From assembly GCA_963793425.1 (NCBI GenBank), contig CAWCAG010000009.1, positions 128,001-192,000 of the forward strand: 64,000 nt of DNA, given 5' to 3'. The position numbers and the translations under genes are program-made. Shown here in pieces: positions 29,323-47,160 of the stretch. Position 1 is the stretch's first letter, and each line of letters begins with the position of its first letter. The notes under the pieces are model-generated. The model was given only the letters and a program-made list of their open reading frames with translations, was not told where the DNA came from and did not search any database. This DNA is from an uncultured cyanobacterium (GTDB lineage: Bacteria > Cyanobacteriota > Cyanobacteriia > Cyanobacteriales > CAWCAG01).

Positions 29323-29461
29323 AACATATATAATGTAGAGATTCTCATTTTACGGCAAAACCTCTCACCTTCAACACTTTTAAAATTGCTATAGATGCCA
29401 GAAATACTATTATTAATCATAAATGATAAATGTTTAATGTTTAATGATAAATGAAACAACC

Positions 29462-31369
29462 ATGGTGGCATTAAAGAAATGGCAGTGGATTTTACTAATC
29501 AGTCCTATCGCTGTGTTGGTAAGCTTCTTACTCATCTCAGCGGGATGGCAAATTCACCAATGGGGTATTAATTGGATTTGGGGGCTATTTATCCTCATCT
29601 TGGCTGGGTGGCGTTGGTTATTGGTTAAATGGACTCGCCCTGCTGCTATGGAAATTGAGACTGCTGTAGCCGAAGCGAAGACAGAATTAGCCACCGCCCA
29701 AGCAGAAACAGCAACCCTGTTGGCTACAGATGATGATGTTAGCAAAACTGTCGAAAGTGCCTTACAAACTACCTTGGAATCTGCCAGGAATGACTTACCC
29801 ATTTGGGAAGATTGGAATACATTTTGGCAACGCTGTCAAGATTTAATTGTGGCTGTTGCCCATGCTTACCATCCGGAAGTTAAATATCCTCTACTCAACA
29901 TCTACATTCCTCAAGCTTATGGATTAATGCGAGGAACAGTAGACGATATGGATCGTTGGATGCAACAACTCTCTCCAGCCTTAAATAAAGTTACTGTCGG
30001 ACAAGGCTTTGAAGCCTATGAAGTTTACCGTAAACTAGAACCATCGGCCCGCAAACTTTGGCGAGTTTTGGGTTTTGCCCAATGGTTTTTAAACCCTGCC
30101 GCAGCTTTAGCAAAACAAGCTAGTCGGGGTTACAATAACCGCGCTACAGAACAGCTTTTAGGGAATTTGGGGCAGATGTTACGGGAAGCAGCCCTACGCA
30201 ACCTCTGCAAGCAATCAGCTTCTCTTTATGGGGGTGATTCCTTACCAGAATCAGCTTTCCATCTTTCTACCCCCAGTTTGCCCAAAGCCCAAACTCAAAC
30301 CCTCCAAAATATTTTAGCCACCGCAGAACCAACAGAAGTTATAGAGCAAAAACCTGTTAACATTTTGCTGGTGGGTAGGACGGGTTCAGGTAAAAGCAGC
30401 CTCATTAATACCCTCTTTCAAGCGGAAAAAGCAGAAGTGGATGTTCTCCCTAGTACCGATAGATTGCAGAGTTACCATTGGCAACTTCCTGAAGGAGAAA
30501 CCCTTACCCTTTGGGATACTCCAGGATATGAACAGGCAAACCATGCTGATTTAAAGGAGTTAGTGTTAGATTATGCCACCAATGCTGATTTTTTACTACT
30601 GGTTACTCCTGCCCTAGATCCTGCCTTACAAATGGATGCAGACTTCTTAGAAGAGGTTGCCGGCGAAGCAACAGACCTCCCCACTATTGTTGTCGTCACT
30701 CAAGTAGATAGGTTGCGCCCCATTCGTGAATGGCAGCCTCCTTATGACTGGCAAAATGGTAACAGTGCCAAAGAAACATCGATCCGAGAAGCAACAAAGT
30801 ACCGGGCTGAACTTTTAGGAGAGTTTGGCAACCTAATTATTCCTACAGTCACTAGGGATGTTGAAACAGGGCGCAATCCTTGGAATGTTGAAGAATTGTC
30901 CCTCGCTTTAGTAGAAGGAATCGCCCCTGCCAAACAACTACGCTTAGCCCGTTTTTTGCGCGATCGCGAAGCCCGTAGCCTTGCCGCAGCGAAAATAATT
31001 GACCGCTACACATTACAAATGGCTACAACTCAAGGACTTACTGCTTTACTAAAAAGTCCTGTTCTACAATTTATCTCTACTGTGTCTACCGGATCACCAA
31101 CTTTAGCCTATGTACTCTCCCAGAAAATTCCGGTGGAACAGTTACCAGTGGTTATTGGCAAGTTGCAAATGGGTTATGAACTACATTCTCTTTTAGATCC
31201 AGATAAATCCTTTGATTTACTTTCCCTTTGGCCTTTGTTGTTAGAAAATTCCTCTACTCCAGATCGCAATGCCTGGGCTTTTGGTCATAGTTTAGTGGAG
31301 TACTGGACTCAAAATCTAACTAAGGAACAATTGTCAGAAAGATTTGACAGCTATTTGCAGAAAATTTAA
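29462..31369 (+). CDS. Membrane-anchored GTPase family protein (MMR_HSR1 domain)
   Basis: Two N-terminal TM helices; G1 GRTGSGKS, G3 DTPG and G4 TQVD. Confidence 0.85.
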
Positions 31370-31850: not shown

Positions 31851-34076
31851 TCAATTGATAAACATCATTGCTGCTAGTTGATTTAACTTAGCTACTTGGG
31901 CTACTTTGTTTTGCCATTCTTCTTGGACTCTTTTACGATTAGCTAATTCTTTGAATTCTGGCCAAACCTGAATGCGTATTTCTTCGTCGCTTAAAAAGTC
32001 TTCCCACTCTCCGCGAATGTTTTTAGCATAAAGAATACGATCAGCAAATTCTTCTACCATGTAATAACGAACTTGGCTAGGAGCTTTTAACCAATTTTCT
32101 AAGGTTTGGCGACATTGGCTAATAACTTGTTGGTGTAATTTTTCTAAGTTAGAACGTACTTCGCTAGGGTTGGTTGGTTCAGTTAAAACTTGATTTTCTT
32201 CTTGATTAAGAGCATTTTCAATTGAGTTTAAAGGTTGGTCAACATCGGCTTGTAAATTGTCGCTAAGATGTTTACGAATAAAGCGTAATAAAGAACTGCT
32301 GTAAGAGAATTCAAAGTCGCCTAGGGTACGAAAGCCTAACTCTAATTGATTCTGTTTCTGCGCCAGCAAATCCGCCATTTCTTGGAGAAACTCTGTCCCT
32401 CGGCTAGGAATCAATTCTCCTAAACGTCCTTGCTTAATTAATACTTCTGCCACAGCAGTTTTCATCTTCTCGACAGATTTATTTAAACCTTTGTCAAGGA
32501 GGAGGAAGTGTTGAGATAAATGAATGCGTAATTCTACAATATAAATACGATAAACCGCTGCATAGGACTCTTTAAACTCTAAAGTACGGCTGCGATCGCA
32601 GATTTCTTGGTCTTGAGGAATACCTGAATCTTTAAGGCAGTTTTCCAAAGCATTTTCGACTGCTGTTTGAAAATCAAAATCAATGTCTTCACTTTTCGCT
32701 TTAAGTTCGTTCCTTAAATCGACTAAACCGTTAACAACATCTTGTAAAAGTTGGTTAAACAAAACCCTAAACTGGCTAGATTCCCGACCATATTTAGCTA
32801 AGGCGGGGCGAACAGTAGCTAATTCCTGAGCAATTTTTTCTTGTAGTTCTATTAAACGAGTTTGGCACTCTCTGGCGTAACGTTTATCTATTTCGTTAAT
32901 ATTAACAGCCAGATAATCCAAGACTAAATCAAAAACTCGATTAGCATCTTTAGGTTCAGAACAATCAGCAATTTCGCAACGGACAACTTGAATAGTATCA
33001 ATATTTTGTTGTAGGGTTTGACAAGCTTTGAGGTTATTAGTTCTTTTACTATAATTGAGAACCATAAAAGAGCGATTTTCTAAGTTATTTAAAGCTTGGG
33101 TGGCCGTATCATAAAGTTGTGTATCTACAGGTTGCCATTGATAACGCATGGGGTCAGGGCGACGAATGAACAGAACAACATCAACCTCTTTTCCCAGAGT
33201 TTTTAGGATTAACTTTTCGTCCCCTAAACGGGAATCTCCCATCCCAGGAACATCAACCAAACTAACTTTACCAACATCAGGATTTTCAAAGCGACAAAAG
33301 ATGACTACTTCCCTAACTGCTAGATGTTTAAAAGTTGTTAGTTTATCTTGTCCATCTCGTTTTTGAATGACATAATCTGGTATTTCTTCTTGCTTAATAG
33401 CAAACTTTTGTGGTTCCCCTGGCTTAATTAAGTAGCGATATTTAGAGAGATTTTGGTGATAATCTTCCTTAAGATGCTTATACATCTTTTCTTTGGTGGC
33501 CCCAAGAGAAGGCGGTTCAATAAAAGTTTGACTAGCAAACTCATCTAAACTTTGGGGTTTATTAGCCAAACCTAACTCATCGTAATAAAGCCAAATAACT
33601 CCTGTTAAAAAAGACTCTTCAGAGTGGAGAGTAACTTCAGCAACAGTATCTCCTGGTTGATTTTCAATAGTACTGCGTACCGCCGTACAAGCCCCCCCTT
33701 CCAAAGCAGGAATCTCTTTATCGCTCAATCCGCTTAAACTTTTTAATAAAGTACTCTTACCCTGCCCCATCAAACCCACCACACCAATATTTAAAGTAGG
33801 ACGAGAAAAGCGTTCCCGTAGAGTATTTAACTTTTCTACTTCTGTTTGAATTTGTTGCAACAAAGGAGAAAAATCGCCTTTCGATAACTGTTCTTTTACC
33901 TCAACTTCTCCCACAGAATTGGTCAAATTTTGACGATAACTTTCCAATTCCCGAATTGCGGTATAAAGTTCCCGTAAGTGCATCTCTACCCACTGTATTT
34001 CCTCAGCTAAGGGTCTACGCTGAGCGATAATACTTTCGATACGTTCTGCTCTAGTATTAGTGTTAGTGGGGTTCAT
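31851..34076 (-). CDS. Dynamin-like GTPase
   Basis: N-terminal helical region, G1 GLMGQGKS, G2-like ACTAV, G3 DVPG, long helical C-terminus. Confidence 0.75.
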   Translation of the reverse strand: MNPTNTNTRAERIESIIAQRRPLAEEIQWVEMHLRELYTAIRELESYRQNLTNSVGEVEVKEQLSKGDFSPLLQQIQTEVEKLNTLRERFSRPTLNIGVVGLMGQGKSTLLKSLSGLSDKEIPALEGGACTAVRSTIENQPGDTVAEVTLHSEESFLTGVIWLYYDELGLANKPQSLDEFASQTFIEPPSLGATKEKMYKHLKEDYHQNLSKYRYLIKPGEPQKFAIKQEEIPDYVIQKRDGQDKLTTFKHLAVREVVIFCRFENPDVGKVSLVDVPGMGDSRLGDEKLILKTLGKEVDVVLFIRRPDPMRYQWQPVDTQLYDTATQALNNLENRSFMVLNYSKRTNNLKACQTLQQNIDTIQVVRCEIADCSEPKDANRVFDLVLDYLAVNINEIDKRYARECQTRLIELQEKIAQELATVRPALAKYGRESSQFRVLFNQLLQDVVNGLVDLRNELKAKSEDIDFDFQTAVENALENCLKDSGIPQDQEICDRSRTLEFKESYAAVYRIYIVELRIHLSQHFLLLDKGLNKSVEKMKTAVAEVLIKQGRLGELIPSRGTEFLQEMADLLAQKQNQLELGFRTLGDFEFSYSSSLLRFIRKHLSDNLQADVDQPLNSIENALNQEENQVLTEPTNPSEVRSNLEKLHQQVISQCRQTLENWLKAPSQVRYYMVEEFADRILYAKNIRGEWEDFLSDEEIRIQVWPEFKELANRKRVQEEWQNKVAQVAKLNQLAAMMFIN

Positions 34077-39742: not shown

Positions 39743-41725
39743 TTACTGAAACCCTCTTGTATTAATTTCTTGCAAATGCTCACCAGGGTTTAACCCATTA
39801 GAAAAGGTACTATTACTTGGGGTTGTTGTTGCTGGAGAGAGAAAATAATTAAGATTACCAGACCTCAATTGCTGCAATTCTGCTTTCTGTTCTGCCCTTT
39901 GTTTTTGTTGTTCTTTTTCCACATACTCCACAATCTTTCTCATCGCAATTTGACCAGTTTCAGTATGGAGAGGGACTTTTTCTAAATAATGTATTGCTTC
40001 AGTAAAGTCACCTTCTTCTGCTAAATCGTAAGCTTTTTGCAAGAAAAAATCAGCTCGGATACGTTGCTTTTGACGATATTCCTCTAACTTTGGTTGTACC
40101 CTTGCTCCCACAGCACTATCAGCAGGTATCTTTTCTAAATAAGTGAGGGCAGCAGTAAACTCTTTTTCTTTTGCTAACTCAAAAGCTTTAGCCAATAATT
40201 CTTCGGCATTAGTTTCTAAATTAACTTCTGCTTCTTCTACTAAAGGGGCAAGTTTTTCTTGCCAAAAAGGGCTAGGAGGAGCTTTTTGCGCTTCTGCTGT
40301 AACTCGCTGCCATTTTTCTTGTTCAAAAGCTGTTTTTGCTGCTTCATACTGTACTTTTGCTGAGCGCCATTCCTGCTGCCATTTAGCTACTCTGGTTTGA
40401 GATTTTTTGTAAACAGAACTTTCTTGATTAACAGATTCTGCTAAAGAAATAGCTTCAGTTAAATCTCCGTTGCCATAGGCTTGTTCTGCTTCCCATAAAA
40501 CATCAACTCCAGAATCAGCAAGATTAGTATTAAATAAATAATGAACCCCAAAAGCGATGGCTAAAGCATTCACCGCTGCCATACCAACCCCTAAACTAGT
40601 AAGGACGGGGAAGAGTTTAAAAAGGTCAAGAAAACCAGAATCTAATAATTTAATGCTGTTATCGGTAAGTTCTGGCCAAGAAAGTTTATTATCTTCCTTT
40701 TGAGGCTTTTCCTGTAAGCTTGGTTCGTTTAATAATTCCTCTTCAAAAATAGTTTCTTCCGTAATTAAAAGCTGTTCATCAGGACGATGACCAGGAAAAA
40801 GCACGAATTGAGGTAAGTCTAACTTACATAAGGGTTCTAAGGCTGCAATAACCTCTTGGGCTGACTGATAGCGCTGTTGGGTATCATAACAAGTCATTCT
40901 GTCGATAATGGCAGCCAATTGGTTACTAAAACCAAGTTCAATAGCATTATCTCGACATAAATGTCGCCAACTAATTTTACCCGTTTCTAAGTTAAGTTGT
41001 AATCTAGCTGGATCTAAGCCAGTTAAAGCTTGAATAGCGATGCTACCTACAGAATAAATATCACTATTAGCCTGGGGCTTGCCTATTAATTGTTCTGGAG
41101 CAATGTAACCTAAAGGACTAACTGCTACTGTAGTTTTAAAAGGAATAGTATTAAAAGACTGTTCTGGTTGAGAAATATCGATTAATTGAGCAGCACCAAA
41201 ATCAATCAGAACTAACTTTCCATCCTGAGAACGTCGAATCAAATTGTTCGGTTTAATGTCACAATGAACAACCCCCTGATTATGAATAAAATCTAAAATA
41301 TTTAATAGGTTATGAAGCAAATTCAACACCTGACCATCACAACCCCAACCACCGCAATATTCCCTTAAAGGTAAATAAGCATCAAGGGGTTGACCAGCTA
41401 TTAATTCTTGGATTAAATAAAAACCTTGACTCTCTTCAAAAAAGGCTAAAAGTTGGGGAACTTGTTCATAACCTTTTAGCTTTTGCAAAACTTCTACTTC
41501 TTTGTAGAATAAGCGTCTACCCGTTCTTAATAAACTAGGATATTCTCCGACAGTTTTCCGATGCTTAACTACACATTTTCTGCTTGGGGAAGTGGTAATA
41601 TCTTCAGCAATGTAAGTTTGTCCAAAAGCACCAGCGCTAAGAACTTTGACAATTTTATAACGCTCTTTTAATAATTGACCTAATAAGGGATAATTAACTC
41701 TATCAGCTAGCAATTTCTTTCCCAA
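39743..41725 (-). CDS. Hanks-type Ser/Thr protein kinase with TM helix and helical extracytoplasmic domain
   Basis: LSAGAFGQTY, CVVK, HCDIKPNN, LIDFGA, GYIAPEQ and SDIYSVG. Confidence 0.9.
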   Translation of the reverse strand: MGKKLLADRVNYPLLGQLLKERYKIVKVLSAGAFGQTYIAEDITTSPSRKCVVKHRKTVGEYPSLLRTGRRLFYKEVEVLQKLKGYEQVPQLLAFFEESQGFYLIQELIAGQPLDAYLPLREYCGGWGCDGQVLNLLHNLLNILDFIHNQGVVHCDIKPNNLIRRSQDGKLVLIDFGAAQLIDISQPEQSFNTIPFKTTVAVSPLGYIAPEQLIGKPQANSDIYSVGSIAIQALTGLDPARLQLNLETGKISWRHLCRDNAIELGFSNQLAAIIDRMTCYDTQQRYQSAQEVIAALEPLCKLDLPQFVLFPGHRPDEQLLITEETIFEEELLNEPSLQEKPQKEDNKLSWPELTDNSIKLLDSGFLDLFKLFPVLTSLGVGMAAVNALAIAFGVHYLFNTNLADSGVDVLWEAEQAYGNGDLTEAISLAESVNQESSVYKKSQTRVAKWQQEWRSAKVQYEAAKTAFEQEKWQRVTAEAQKAPPSPFWQEKLAPLVEEAEVNLETNAEELLAKAFELAKEKEFTAALTYLEKIPADSAVGARVQPKLEEYRQKQRIRADFFLQKAYDLAEEGDFTEAIHYLEKVPLHTETGQIAMRKIVEYVEKEQQKQRAEQKAELQQLRSGNLNYFLSPATTTPSNSTFSNGLNPGEHLQEINTRGFQ

Positions 41726-43004: not shown

Positions 43005-43212
43005 TCACCTTCTGAAAATCATCTTTCCAGAAGGAAGAATTAGAGGCGATTCAGAATTATTGAGGGGATGATATTCATAAACTTTAAAATTTTTGACATC
43101 TATGGTGATTGTTTGCTCTCTAATCTTCGAGTTAGGGAAAAAAGCTGTATCCCAGAATTCTAACTCACCAAAGTAGCCATGAATGGTTTTGATTTTTTCT
43201 TAACCTTTTCAT
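43005..43212 (-). pseudogene. Candidate cognate immunity gene remnant
   Basis: ATG at 43212 overlaps the toxin 3' end; after a frameshift it reads IKTIHGYFGELEFWDTAFF...YEYHPLN..SGKMIF. Confidence 0.5.
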
Positions 43213-45109
43213 AAATTATGGTTGTAATTTCGCCACCTACTTCTCTCCATCAGAAGGCGGAAGTCTAAGTCATCAAATCTAGGATCTAATGATTAGTCGT
43301 CACCAACAAACGCAATCCCAGGGCATCTAAAGTTTCCTCGTTAGGCTTCTTCGACTTCCTGTACCAGTCCCCCACCAATATCTATCTGAGCAATTAGCAT
43401 TTATGCTGATGCGTCCACCAGGCTTCAACAACCTATCAGCTTCTTCAATAAATGCACCCTGCTGTCCACTGCATCAATCTTCATCAACGCTATTGCCTCT
43501 GGGAAAATTTTGAGAAGTCAGCCAGTAGTTGCTCTTATTCCTTTCTTCAGCAATTATATCGTAGTTAATGCTCCTGGTGTTGAGATACTCTCCCTCCAAA
43601 TAAATCTAAAGTTATACTTTCCCCTGAAGCAATCTTGCGGGCAACAAAAGCTTTAGCTTCATCGACATTAAGAAATCGAGAGCTAGGAAGATTAGGATTA
43701 GGCTCAGAGCCTTGTCTTCCCCCCTCAATTCGCATCGGTCCTTGAATATCGTCTACCTCTGCTGGTACACGACCTCCGTTAGCTGGCACTAATTCACCAT
43801 CCGGCCCTAAGCGCCTCCCCAAAGCCTCCAACACTTGATCTATCTGTTGCCTAATTTTGTTGAACGCCTCCTCCAACATGGAACTATTGTTCCTAACCTG
43901 CTCCAGTGCTTCCTGCAACTGCCGTTTCTGTGCCGCTATGGGACCAATGCCTGGAATACGCTCCACTAGATCGGAAATACGCCTCAATAAGTCATTCCAC
44001 TCGTTTGTGCCAATCTCTACCCACTTCCCCCAATTATCCTGCACAAAGCGGCGAAATTCAGCAATACCTCCTTCTGGCAACACTCGACGAATCAGCCCCA
44101 GCAAATCATCAACTATTGCTAAGGCTTCATCTGTTCCCTTGAGCAGGACTTTGCTGATTCCTTTGACTGCACTACCAATAGTAGGAATCAAACCAATAAG
44201 AGAAAAAGCTAACCCCACCCATCGTAAAGGCTTATTAACCTCTCCTTTAAACAGCATGAAGTAAAGATGAGCAATCAGAACCGACCATCTGCCACCTGAT
44301 CAAATCCTGGTATTACTTCTATGGCAGTATCGATACCAATTTCTGCAAACTTGGGTCACTCTTAAATTCTCCAAGCAAGCCACACCAATGGCTTAAGCAT
44401 CCCCCATAATCTTTGCTGCCAACTTTGTTCGTCCTCTTGCTCAGCTTGAGATAGAGTTGCGTCAATCTTCATCAGATAATAATAAATTACAGATATTTGA
44501 GATAAAAGATAGGCAGACGCAGGATCACTTTCAGACATATCTAAAGCTGCCTTATAGTAATTCATTGCTTCAGCAAGGCTGTTGTTTTCAAAAGCCACAT
44601 CACCCATACTGGTACATGATTCAAAACTGTTGCACTGAAGCGATTGTTCTCTCTGCCCTTGAGATTGAAGCTGTTTTTCTCCCTGGTTATCTTGAGTTGT
44701 TTTTGGTTGAACTTGTTGTTTTATTTCTTCTTCTGCTGATTTATTTTGTATCCCTTGAGATGGTGTTTGAGTATCATCAACGTTACTATCTAAAGCTTGA
44801 AGTCTCTGACACTTCTCCCACTGTTGTGCCAAAAATGCTTGCTGGTTTTGTTGACATGCTGCTACTGCGTTGTAAGGACTTTGTAGCCAATTCGGAGTTG
44901 AAAAGGAAGTAGTGTTTCCTTCTATTTCTTCTGGGTGTGGAGGTACATCGTGCTTTGGTGTTGAGTCTAATTTATGTGGCAGCTTAGAAGGTTTGAAGGT
45001 AGATTTCTTTTGGGGAGGTTCATAGCTAGCCAGAATTAATCTTGGGGAAATTTTGGGTAGGTCAAGCCACTTGGACTCTCTCTACTTTGGGCTTAAGCAA
45101 TTTCCCCAT
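43195..45109 (-). pseudogene. Polymorphic toxin-like gene: low-complexity N-terminus, FIX-like domain, linker, SAM-methyltransferase-like C-terminus
   Basis: Stitched across frameshifts: GLLGEFKSDPS/AEIGIDTAIEVIPGFDQVADGR/LIAHL..RWVGLAFSLIGLIPTIGSAVKG, then LDLFGG, SVDE and RLLKPGGRI. Confidence 0.7.
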
Positions 45110-45321
45110 ACTTTACCCCTAAAGTCTGAGAAATATGTTGTCTATATGTACTTAATGTTTTTCTTTAGATTATTTCTAACTCAAAAGAAACACTTTCAAT
45201 ATCCCATCGAATCCAAGCATAAGGATTTTCTAATACTCCTTTTAATACATACATTTTTACAAAGCTATTACGTTCTAAAAACGGTCTAACAACAATCAAG
45301 TGCGCGTATCCCGTTCCCCTA

Positions 45322-47160
45322 CTAAGGAGTTTCTATATTTTCCACATCTGGAGAACTATCAGAATTATCTTGCTTCTCCAAAGAATCAAGGAACCATTTA
45401 GTTGCGAAACCAGCTATCCCTACTATGGTTAATATAGCTATAACCCCTAACAAGATAGCTAAACCCTTTGGTAAAGATCCTTTGGTAGTTTCTATTTCTA
45501 ATTCTTCTACCTCTTCTATTTCTTCTATTGGCGGTAAGGGAGAAGACACTACCCCTTGTTCTTCTGCTTCTGAATTAAGCAATGCCTCGCTAATCACACT
45601 TACCCCTGGTAACTCTGATAAATTAACCAATACAGGATACTGAGCAGAAACGCCGTAGTAAGCCAAAGAAATGGTGGTATTATCGTGACCATTTTTTTCG
45701 TTGGCTAGATTAATCAAATTCTGGGCAACTTCATCTAAAGAAACTTTACCGGCGATCGCATCAGGAGCAAAATCTTGCCAATATTGCTCAATTAAATCAT
45801 TATCGCTCAAGCCATCGGAGCAAAGTAGTAATAGTCCATCTTCTTCTATAAGCAATCTTTTTACCCTCGGACGCAACAAATCAGCATCCTTAGTACCCAA
45901 AGCTTGGATCAAAGCCCCTGCATCTGGACGTTGCCAAGCTTCTCGATACAAACTCCGCCCCAAGCTCACTTCTCGACTAGCGACATCATCATCCACCGTC
46001 AACTTTTGGCAATATTTTGAGGTAATCCAATAAGCACGACTATCCCCAACCCAAGCGAGGTAAAGTTCATGGCTATTCCCTACTCCTGACTCTGGTTGGC
46101 GCAATTGTTGCGGGAGTTGTAACCCCATAACTAAAGTAGTTGCCATGCGCCTACGGGATTCTCTACCTTGTTCATCATTCCGTGCTGCGATGACATTATT
46201 AATCACTCGAATCACTGCGGTTAATTGCTGTGCTACCAAATCCGGACTCATAATTTCGGTATCTTCAGCAATCTCTCTTAATAAAGCACGGATTTGCAAC
46301 TTCAAAGTTTGTACTGCTAGCTGACTAGCAACTTCTCCCCCTTCATGACCCCCAATACCGTCGCAAATAGCTGTGAGATGTTGGCTTAAAGGATCACCAC
46401 TTTCATAAATATCTTCTTTTGTGGGATAATAACTGTCTTCGTTATGATTTTGACGTGGCCCAGCATCAGTAATGCCGGTAATTCTTACCCTCAGAGGTTT
46501 TTGGGAAGCTGTTTCTAATAAGAGACGATTAAAGCGAGATTGCAGACTAACTAAAGAAACACCATCACTTTCTAACTCTGAAACAAACCCTTCTAATTGC
46601 AAGGCAACATCACTGCTAGCATAACTAACCAAGGATGACCAAAGATTCCCTAATTGTTGTAAATTAGCAGGAGTTGTCGTTTCAGGATGTAATTCTAACA
46701 ACCACAGTCGCCAACCTTGCACCCGCAAATTATCCTTGTGCAGCAAGCTAGAAGCGACTCCTGCTGCTTGTAAAGGTGACCACAAATCTAGCATTTGCCA
46801 TAGCCAATAAAGCTGTCTCACAGCAGATGCTTCTCCCCAAGCATCTGCCAAACTAGGATAAAGATGTCCCTGTTCATCTATCGGTACATTTTCTAATAAC
46901 ACCACCTCAGATTTACCTAAAGGGCAAACTCCATAGATTTCAGGAACATGGAGGCGTTGAGGAAGCAATTTCAGGTATATTTGTACCCAGTCTGATAAAG
47001 AATCCTCTAGAGAAACTGGCTGTTCTGGTTGAGTATCCTGCCAAATTTGAGGCCCAATGACTTTGTACCTATCTTCAATAAAATCGACTTGCGATAATTG
47101 AGTTGCACTTTCTCCTGATGCCCAAAGATAAGGGTTAATTTTTTGTTGCAAGCTAACCAT
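45322..47160 (-). CDS. PP2C (PPM) Ser/Thr phosphatase with N-terminal accessory domain and C-terminal TM
   Basis: HNED, CDGIGGHEGGEVAS, VGDSRAY, CSDGL and GHDNTT. Confidence 0.92.
   Translation of the reverse strand: MVSLQQKINPYLWASGESATQLSQVDFIEDRYKVIGPQIWQDTQPEQPVSLEDSLSDWVQIYLKLLPQRLHVPEIYGVCPLGKSEVVLLENVPIDEQGHLYPSLADAWGEASAVRQLYWLWQMLDLWSPLQAAGVASSLLHKDNLRVQGWRLWLLELHPETTTPANLQQLGNLWSSLVSYASSDVALQLEGFVSELESDGVSLVSLQSRFNRLLLETASQKPLRVRITGITDAGPRQNHNEDSYYPTKEDIYESGDPLSQHLTAICDGIGGHEGGEVASQLAVQTLKLQIRALLREIAEDTEIMSPDLVAQQLTAVIRVINNVIAARNDEQGRESRRRMATTLVMGLQLPQQLRQPESGVGNSHELYLAWVGDSRAYWITSKYCQKLTVDDDVASREVSLGRSLYREAWQRPDAGALIQALGTKDADLLRPRVKRLLIEEDGLLLLCSDGLSDNDLIEQYWQDFAPDAIAGKVSLDEVAQNLINLANEKNGHDNTTISLAYYGVSAQYPVLVNLSELPGVSVISEALLNSEAEEQGVVSSPLPPIEEIEEVEELEIETTKGSLPKGLAILLGVIAILTIVGIAGFATKWFLDSLEKQDNSDSSPDVENIETP

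Follow-up and report, generated by a model that had tools for sequence, protein, structure and literature searches.

The FIX domain is used for mining type VI effectors and is thought to act via VgrG. As first described, it comprises ~80 residues (43–121 of V12_14465 of Vibrio parahaemolyticus; Jana et al., 2019, PMC6688995), and the sections of that paper drawn on here report a type VI secretion system (T6SS) gene directly upstream in 70% of cases and a T6SS in >96% of FIX-bearing genomes, and term the domain T6SS-specific. A second group of injected toxins, those carrying DUF4157 (eCIS_core) and linked to extracellular contractile injection systems (eCIS), share a plan of disordered N-terminus, optional conserved domain, long linker and variable toxin (Geller, 2021, PMC8213781; Danov, 2024, PMC11297309; the cargos Cgo1 and Cgo2 of AlgoCIS). 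Here we analyse a 64,000-nucleotide stretch of contig CAWCAG010000009.1 from an uncultured cyanobacterium (hereafter the window), in which the minus strand at ~43.2–45.1 kb holds the broken remains of a toxin gene whose central module begins with a homolog of FIX. The locus is very probably a polymorphic-toxin cassette of the interbacterial type, now decayed, whose identity is well supported and whose export route we infer from its relatives.

No long open reading frame (ORF) covers this part of the minus strand; one gene is split over three frames. Four stop-to-stop frames lie end to end, of which 44362–45081 holds GIQNK...VQPK and the TPR-like helices, 44319–44468 holds HWCGLLGEFKSDPS, 44275–44355 holds AEIGIDTAIEVIPGFDQVADGR, and 43565–44299 holds LIAHLYFMLF...RWVGLAFSLIGLIPTIGSAVKG...GELVPANGG; short frames continue to ~43160. 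An earlier, sequence-only reading had stitched these peptides into a single gene. All of them are present, and tblastn with an intact relative confirms that their succession is more than chance. This relative, P0001, is a 514-residue “hypothetical protein” in a Spirulinaceae cyanobacterium metagenome-assembled genome (MAG), and was among the 11 proteins returned by a word-indexed search with the central region of a paralog from the source genome. It spans 44832–43304 of the window in four pieces: residues 1–185 match at 167 of 185 positions, the mismatches being confined to a shifted stretch (147–186); residues 187–419 are identical throughout (233/233); residues 423–496 match at 49 of 75 positions with an in-frame stop; and residues 496–511 match at 14 of 16. 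P0001 is called from the codon at 44832. The start assigned by the sequence-only reading, ATG 45109, has to be moved, as it opens just 15 codons (MGKLLKPKVERVQVA) before a stop; homology to the paralog start (MLMASYEPP...) places the ancestral one at ~45031–45033, where the window reads CTG. The lower bound of ~43195 holds, agreeing with where full-length relatives place the toxin domain's end (...TTIIYEKV). The parts of the cassette are as follows.

45165..45332, minus strand: C-terminal fragment of a small immunity-family gene (...YVLKGVLENPYAWIRWDIESVSFELEII), a stop-to-stop frame assigned by alignment and blastn
44362..45081, minus strand: toxin gene piece 1, with the Pro/Gln-rich N-terminus (IQNK, VQPK) and TPR-like helices
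44141..44403, minus strand: FIX-homologous part of the module (P0001 residues 144–232), broken over three frames
43804..44140, minus strand: helical extension of the module (P0001 residues ~233–345), in frame and intact
43685..43803, minus strand: linker GELVPANGG...RIEGGRQGSEPNPN, predicted disordered (predicted local distance difference test, pLDDT, < 50 at P0001 residues 367–386)
43200..43684, minus strand: decayed C-terminal toxin domain (ITLDLFGG..., FIEEADRLLKPGGRISINAN..., ...TTIIYEKV), in several frames, with an in-frame stop at 43474–43476
43005..43199, minus strand: presumed cognate immunity gene, N-terminal 64 codons, ended by a stop

Within the FIX-homologous part, the frame breaks lie near 44392, 44382, 44340 and 44281. 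A Pfam scan of eight window pieces gave just sub-threshold hints of TPR (TPR_8, E 0.0048, below cut-off) and methyltransferase, and a linker of similar kind recurs in the relatives P0008 and P0157.

The module occupies P0001 residues 144–345, N-terminal to the toxin domain (385–514), and no Pfam model lies over it in the 11 first relatives or in the 78 further full-length relatives scanned (the best 78 of 145 representatives, taken in rank order, with 67 left out). A domain-only alignment of 11 sequences (A3; 214 profile positions), in which the helical extension is conserved, matched 1,490 of 1.84 billion cluster representatives at E <= 0.001, 835 at <= 1e-10 and 240 at <= 1e-30. Scanned against one genome per species, A3 returned 14 loci, 13 of which were annotated (in L048 no ORF spans the match). 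At nine of the 13, in two Massilia, Caldimonas, two Stenotrophomonas, Janthinobacterium, two Pseudomonas and a member of the Rhodocyclaceae, the domain forms the N-terminus of a ~470–540-residue protein downstream of a T6SS VgrG gene, either directly or separated by one 134-residue ORF. Two of these proteins, matched by contig coordinates, are rows of the FIX table of Jana et al. (supplementary file 2 of PMC6688995): WP_073525788.1 (482 residues; NZ_MRST01000025.1 522290–523738, our L045:7902–9350) and WP_105524205.1 (485 residues; NZ_PCOZ01000013.1 87344–88801, our L047:7902–9359). An hhalign comparison of A3 with an alignment of the nine VgrG-linked N-termini (A5) gave a probability of 99.95% (E 9.8e-38, 103 columns), and BLASTP of P0001 against the Pseudomonas protein WP_073525788.1 gave 42% identity over 89 residues (E 3e-15). 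Homology of the first ~90 residues of the ~200-residue module to FIX is thus well supported at the level of sequence, membership being judged by homology to the authors' listed proteins and not by a curated FIX profile, and these matches bear out the resemblance to FIX that the sequence-only reading had noted. In the two Pseudomonas loci, the ORF between VgrG and the FIX protein (L045 7420–7821, L047 7422–7823) has no Pfam match and may encode an adaptor or chaperone.

Compared with the FIX of T6SS effectors (V12_14465; RhsF of Chromobacterium violaceum, PMC13324451), the cyanobacterial module shares, over its ~90 homologous residues, a motif pattern of GDF/GEF-N-x-D-P, IP-x-x-DQ-x-x-D-x-RD and W-x-x-L-x-x-T/S-LIGLIP-x-x-GS-x-x-KG, and it likewise contains a hydrophobic helix and precedes varied toxin domains. 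It differs in being central rather than N-terminal, in being followed by ~110 more conserved helical residues, and in its N-terminal partner, which is TPR here and DUF4157 in most relatives. The setting differs as well: T6SS core genes are missing from the source genome, and the place directly upstream is taken not by a VgrG, TssL or DUF4123 gene but by the immunity-gene fragment, which abuts the end of a PP2C phosphatase gene. In an AlphaFold2 (AF2) model of P0001 (144-row alignment, mean pLDDT 68), residues 14–61 are disordered (pLDDT < 50), helices span 70–129, a helical bundle at 181–350 is predicted at pLDDT 88–98, the linker is disordered, and the C-terminal domain is weak. Foldseek of this model against the PDB returned no match at E <= 0.001, and sequence searches of the PDB gave generic helical and coiled-coil rows for A3 and three rows at E >= 1.4 for A5. 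The best fold match to the module is the Tse15 clade domain (Z 9.6, 168 residues, root-mean-square deviation (rmsd) 3.5), the only listed row to align most of the module at low rmsd; as Z below ~13 does not decide between helical bundles, the match is suggestive, not decisive. Both are all-helical bundles at the delivery end of an injected toxin. Unlike the module, the Tse15 domain precedes an Rhs cage and is cleaved off, and neither A3 nor A5 matches it among PDB sequences.

Two families are sited like the module, between trafficking part and toxin, and share with it Gly/Pro-rich hydrophobic motifs of the IP-x-x-G type: the pre-toxin domain PT-TG (PF14449) and DUF4112 (PF13430), a small membrane-protein family. 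PT-TG was rejected, having never matched at E <= 0.01 in the 11 proteins, at <= 1e-5 in the 78, or at <= 10 in the 11 module sequences. DUF4112 matched 10 of the 11 module sequences, always below cut-off (best E 5.4e-5), a hint of membrane affinity only.

The toxin domain was followed through its own relatives. A search with P0001 residues 385–514 returned six further proteins: P0157, a cyanobacterial FIX-type protein (71% identity); P0159 and P0160, of RHS type; and three shorter ones. P0159 is named RHS repeat-associated by its source and shares with P0160 a precomputed Pfam family and an RHS-type region before the domain, the RHS_repeat matches of both being weak and below cut-off. Methyltransf_11 matches all six (E 1.5e-4 to 1.4e-3), three of them above the 21.2-bit cut-off, and a model of P0162 (7-row alignment, pLDDT 60–88) finds nearly all of its 50 best fold rows to be methyltransferases by title, the best being 1vl5_A (Z 9.4, rmsd 4.1, 115 residues). 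The domain is therefore predicted to have a class I S-adenosylmethionine (SAM)-methyltransferase-like fold. Like the known members (Methyltransf_11; 1vl5, 1xxl, TrmI 2pwy), it has a motif-I-like LDLFGG and a ...LKPGGRI.IN strand; unlike them, it spans just ~130–165 residues, caps RHS and FIX-type toxins and comes with a putative small immunity protein of its own. The link to that small protein comes from P0158, whose ORF continues past the toxin domain into a region that shares 36% identity over 90 residues (E 4e-13) with a 108-residue protein encoded near the paralog; this fusion ties the small-protein family to this toxin type, and the ~110-residue protein is likely the cognate immunity protein. 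An ESM Atlas search with the 108-residue protein gave scores < 0.9 and unnamed clusters, with the YxiG family at 0.84 as a weak lead only. The word “methyltransferase” does not occur in the examined part of the 2012 polymorphic toxin survey (PMC3482391), and the phrase “methyltransferase toxin” does not occur in the literature searched.

Beyond this one toxin type, the C-termini that follow the module in its relatives (alignment A1) include Ntox5, Tox-REase-9, Endonuclea_NS_2, EndoU, RNAse_A_bac, Cytotoxic, kinase-like and methyltransferase-like domains, and also NTP_transf_2. The family thus has the marks of polymorphic toxins, namely a shared centre with varied C-termini, a toxin domain carried on other trafficking modules, and a downstream small gene with orphan cassettes. 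The sequence-only reading had expected homologs that vary at the C-terminus and are accompanied by downstream small genes, and both were found, with the toxin domain on RHS proteins besides.

The source genome, in nine contigs and 98.6% complete, holds three copies of the module: the window gene, the paralog, which is a 715-residue ORF on contig C5 (locus L004, 8567–10714), and an orphan C-terminal fragment 1.6 kb downstream. The N-terminus of the paralog is longer, Pro/Gln/Glu-rich, and matches TPR_2 (E 6.3e-7, above cut-off) and PG_binding_1 (E 1.9e-5). Most of its toxin domain is gone: beyond the module and linker it retains ~40 residues only, corresponding to the last part of the kinase-like C-terminus of P0008. 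It is followed downstream by a 224-residue gene, a cREC_REC receiver, a 117-residue small gene, the orphan fragment, a beta-propeller gene, a DUF4291 gene and the 108-residue small gene; divergent from it is a gene for an AAA+ ATPase with a winged-helix domain (AAA+WHD), none of which occurs near the window gene. By alignment, the two window fragments that flank the toxin gene, 45165–45332 (a C-terminal half) and 43005–43199, form one family with the 108- and 117-residue proteins. At the DNA level, the former is 85% identical to L004 7101–7235 (blastn) and the latter 92% identical to L004 7314–7480. The 117-residue gene (L004 7145–7498) ends ...YAWI, and the DNA beyond it is still 85% identical to window ...AWIRWDIESVSFELEII (45163–45297), so this copy also seems cut short.

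As to delivery, the sequence-only reading had found no delivery genes in the window, and the scan of 21 ORFs agrees, with no contractile injection system (CIS) or T6SS gene among them. Its proposed search of the genome for eCIS or T6SS structural genes gave a split answer: VipB/TssC, Hcp and TssK had no match in the 98.6% complete genome, on which account the window gene, a T6SS being an associate of FIX and no part of what defines homology, is filed as FIX-homologous and not as a T6SS marker, and an eCIS-type set was recovered, its CIS genes spread over at least three loci. At C7:40–46 kb there are three gp19-type tubes, a sheath and two Pvc16_N genes; at C5:326–334 kb a tube, a CIS_tube and a VgrG-like spike; and at C9:197753–201679 (L069 7754–11680), 5.7–9.7 kb past the window end, gp25, Baseplate_J and Tail_P2_I genes, then a DUF4159 gene. 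The genome further encodes nine eCIS_core (DUF4157) proteins and three AAA+WHD ATPases, one being that beside the paralog and another directly before a DUF4157 gene. It is also rich in toxin cassettes without the FIX module. Three tandem DUF4157 genes with small genes after each lie at C7:671–678 kb (L020), and a YwqJ-deaminase-domain protein is encoded on C5 (L021 12062–13321), 6 kb from another DUF4157 gene.

Among the relatives, the eCIS_core domain is N-terminal to the module in 6 of the 11 first relatives and present in 47 of the 78 further ones, before the module in 46 and after it in P0045; the other 31 have no family (27), TPR only (2), DUF2380 only (1) or Endonuclea_NS_2 only (1). P0045 (457 residues), alone in its reversed order (module 61–261, eCIS_core 311–387), may be a two-gene fusion or a true rearrangement. 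In a Serinicoccus locus (L035) a Pvc16_N gene and an AAA+WHD ATPase gene precede, in this order, the gene of the DUF4157-plus-module protein, and in a Myxococcota MAG (L037) the module protein is flanked by GPD and Baseplate_J genes. In these respects the module family resembles DUF4157 toxins, for the module is the unannotated stretch after DUF4157, and an AAA+ ATPase adjoins both the paralog and the Serinicoccus gene. Within the phylum, 7 of 401 sampled genomes, the source genome included, carry the module at E <= 1e-5. One of these genomes (G208) has a DUF4157-plus-module gene, behind which orphan cassettes carry RNAse_A_bac and Cytotoxic domains.

The module also occurs beside an RHS/TcdB gene and in giant proteins of 1,535–2,915 residues in four other cyanobacterial genomes. 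Three of the four giants combine DUF4114 with PPC, subtilase or LysM, and the 1,535-residue one has no Pfam match; in all four, 0–150 residues separate the module from the C-terminal domain after it (EndoU in one, NTP_transf_2 in another, unknown in two). One giant exoprotein gene adjoins an HlyD gene. Each of the four giant-exoprotein loci also has a 353–393-residue gene with a weak DALR_1 match (L063 4664–5722, L064 11164–12276, L065 12128–13306, L066 7108–8184), placed downstream of the giant gene, either immediately after it or, in L064 and L066, one gene further on; as DALR_1 is the anticodon-binding domain of tRNA synthetases, the gene may encode an immunity protein mimicking a domain that binds tRNA. 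Just two rows of the FIX table are DUF4157 proteins, from Desulfobulbus japonicus (807 residues), which scores zero T6SS components, and Desulfacinum infernum (1393 residues), and the table has actinomycete rows as well; the sections of PMC6688995 drawn on here do not discuss the DUF4157 rows, and “FIX domain” and “DUF4157” are nowhere mentioned together in the literature searched. The routes with which the module would travel are T6SS, as VgrG-linked cargo, eCIS, as DUF4157 cargo in Actinomycetota, Myxococcota and Cyanobacteria, and export as giant exoproteins.

From these observations the following account can be proposed. The ancestral protein, of ~550 residues, would have had a disordered Pro/Gln-rich N-terminus, a short TPR segment, the ~200-residue all-helical pre-toxin module whose first ~90 residues are FIX with its hydrophobic helix RWVGLAFSLIGLIPTIGSAV, a flexible linker, and a C-terminal toxin of ~165 residues with a class I SAM-methyltransferase fold, the ~110-residue protein encoded directly downstream serving as immunity protein. 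It is about an even chance that the working protein was exported as cargo of the genome's eCIS-type system, its disordered N-terminus acting as a loading signal handled by the AAA+/winged-helix ATPase. The FIX module would either dock the toxin on a VgrG-like spike or aid its crossing of the target membrane after delivery, whereupon the methyltransferase-fold domain would modify a cytoplasmic molecule of the target, most likely RNA. The sequence-only reading had likewise proposed a toxin for a contractile or other non-canonical route: the toxin part stands through its polymorphic-toxin logic, and contractile delivery is suggested by the relatives and the ATPase next to the paralog. Its appeal to DUF4157 proteins is justified for the relatives and fails for the window gene and paralog; a TPR-fronted protein without DUF4157 could conceivably still be eCIS cargo.

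Several observations weigh against parts of this account. DUF4157 (PF13699, HExxH) has no match in the window pieces or in the 715-residue paralog, which unlike DUF4157 toxins have TPR (and in the paralog also PG_binding_1) in place of the HExxH domain, and conversely the module is absent from the nine DUF4157 genes of the genome at E <= 0.01. The window gene is far from CIS genes: the nearest core genes, the baseplate cluster on the same contig (C9), lie 24.6 kb away, beyond the distance of up to ten genes within which 88% of eCIS toxins are reported to fall in the part of PMC11297309 drawn on here. The module in giant exoproteins and beside RHS/TcdB means that its presence alone does not point to contractile delivery. 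The methyltransferase call draws on borderline Pfam scores and a medium-confidence model from seven sequences. P0001 stops ~35 residues short of the full toxin domain as it extends in full-length relatives and, since the metagenome contigs described next list no difference at the CTG in the start position, this intact ortholog may also lack the N-terminal 67 residues. Lastly, a comparison with contigs only leaves room for local assembly error.

Does the broken reading frame belong to the organism or to the assembly? We drew close variants from four sediment-metagenome runs of one study and compared them as contigs, not as reads of the source sample. The flanks of the broken region differ from these contigs at just 4 of 673 and 1 of 265 letters, and the differences within it are many: a 321-nt contig (runs X1 and X2) carries one additional C after 44382 and one additional A after 44392, a second one, of 228 nt (run X1), has two more gaps within 44149–44374, and an 823-nt contig (runs X1 and X2) aligned to 43097–43916 shows 27 letter differences and 13 gaps. 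In total, the FIX region has at least four frame breaks and the toxin domain at least 10 indels plus a stop, which, together with the truncated immunity gene, contradicts the working hidden gene of the sequence-only reading. By our reading of their contexts, at most one of the 12 indels listed falls at a site (>=3 identical bases) prone to run-length error, and we therefore read the window copy, with high probability, as a true pseudogene, the toxin gene being inactive and its immunity gene likewise. That the gene is instead intact in the living organism, its frame breaks being local consensus errors caused, for example, by reads of a mixed close strain or of the 85%-identical C5 paralog, seems unlikely to us. 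An intact allele does exist in nature, in P0001 and in the contigs of runs X1 and X2, the breaks are grouped in two short stretches amid otherwise identical sequence, and a paralog at 84–86% DNA identity could mislead polishing; yet 27 substitutions accompany the indels, the indel contexts mostly do not fit run-length error, the long neighbouring genes all read through, and the downstream immunity gene is truncated too. Programmed frame changes, by which ribosomal frameshifting or slippage would make a regulated or phase-variable toxin, have in their favour that several frames need joining, and nothing further. We reject them as highly improbable, since at least 14 indels scattered over 1.2 kb plus an in-frame stop do not resemble programmed frameshifting, no repeat tracts are visible in the 12 indel contexts, and the close relative has a plain open frame.

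Returning to the decayed cassette as the preferred reading, the role of its module is a matter on which two readings are live, spike docking and membrane translocation. According to the latter, FIX plus the helices would be a general pre-toxin module that takes cytoplasm-acting toxins across the target membrane and not a device for docking on injection machines, and the cyanobacterial toxin would leave by lysis, type I secretion or some other route; we consider this possible, though rather less than probable. Its position argues for it, as the module stands right before a variable toxin in four contexts (VgrG-linked, DUF4157/eCIS, giant exoproteins, and near RHS/TcdB), as do the hydrophobic helix, called transmembrane by Phobius in the FIX table rows examined (e.g., o83-114i), the weak DUF4112 matches, and the attached toxins, most of the named ones being nucleases or RNases (Ntox5, Tox-REase-9, Endonuclea_NS_2, EndoU, RNAse_A_bac, Cytotoxic, NTP_transf_2), in keeping with the statement in PMC6688995, in the sections drawn on here, that most FIX-fused toxins target nucleic acids. 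Against it, those same sections report FIX to be required for T6SS-mediated killing and dispensable for toxicity, a FIX-bearing Rhs protein co-purified with VgrG3 (PMC13324451, as excerpted), the structurally similar Tse15 clade domain was modelled binding VgrG15 (PMC11461821, as excerpted), and the AF2 model is a soluble helical bundle. A wider proposition is that FIX plus its helical extension may be a widespread pre-toxin module and no marker of T6SS, accompanying toxins that act in the cytoplasm irrespective of how they are exported. It would be either an adaptor common to the spikes of T6SS and eCIS, which are homologous and of VgrG type, or a device for membrane translocation, and the methyltransferase-fold domain and its ~110-residue partner would form an undescribed toxin–immunity family. 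Taken jointly, these claims are tentative, and we would not expect all of them to hold together.

The surroundings of the cassette are in good order. The 660-residue Ser/Thr kinase at 39743–41725 and the 612-residue PP2C phosphatase at 45322–47160 are intact, as are all other long ORFs scanned in the window. Elsewhere in it, two large dynamin-family GTPase genes adjoin each other on opposite strands (29444–31369, plus; 31851–34076, minus), forming a bacterial dynamin-like pair.

What, then, does a broken gene contribute? The window gene itself is a dead copy, of value only as a pointer to the broader FIX lead. If followed, this lead would have FIX hits read differently, as FIX forms the conserved, unannotated centre of many DUF4157 toxins, and its variants are fronted by TPR or embedded in giant exoproteins, in phyla and genomes without a T6SS. 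The excerpted text of PMC8213781 notes a “very long linker” between DUF4157 and the toxin domains, and in that of PMC11297309, 983 of 1,130 DUF4157-bearing predicted toxins have no further annotated domain. The module would be the first domain assigned to part of that linker, and the toxin with the methyltransferase fold may point to a new toxic activity. As a lead, FIX may be a general pre-toxin module rather than a T6SS-specific marker, which puts to two fields the question of which step is common to these routes, docking on the spike or crossing of the membrane.

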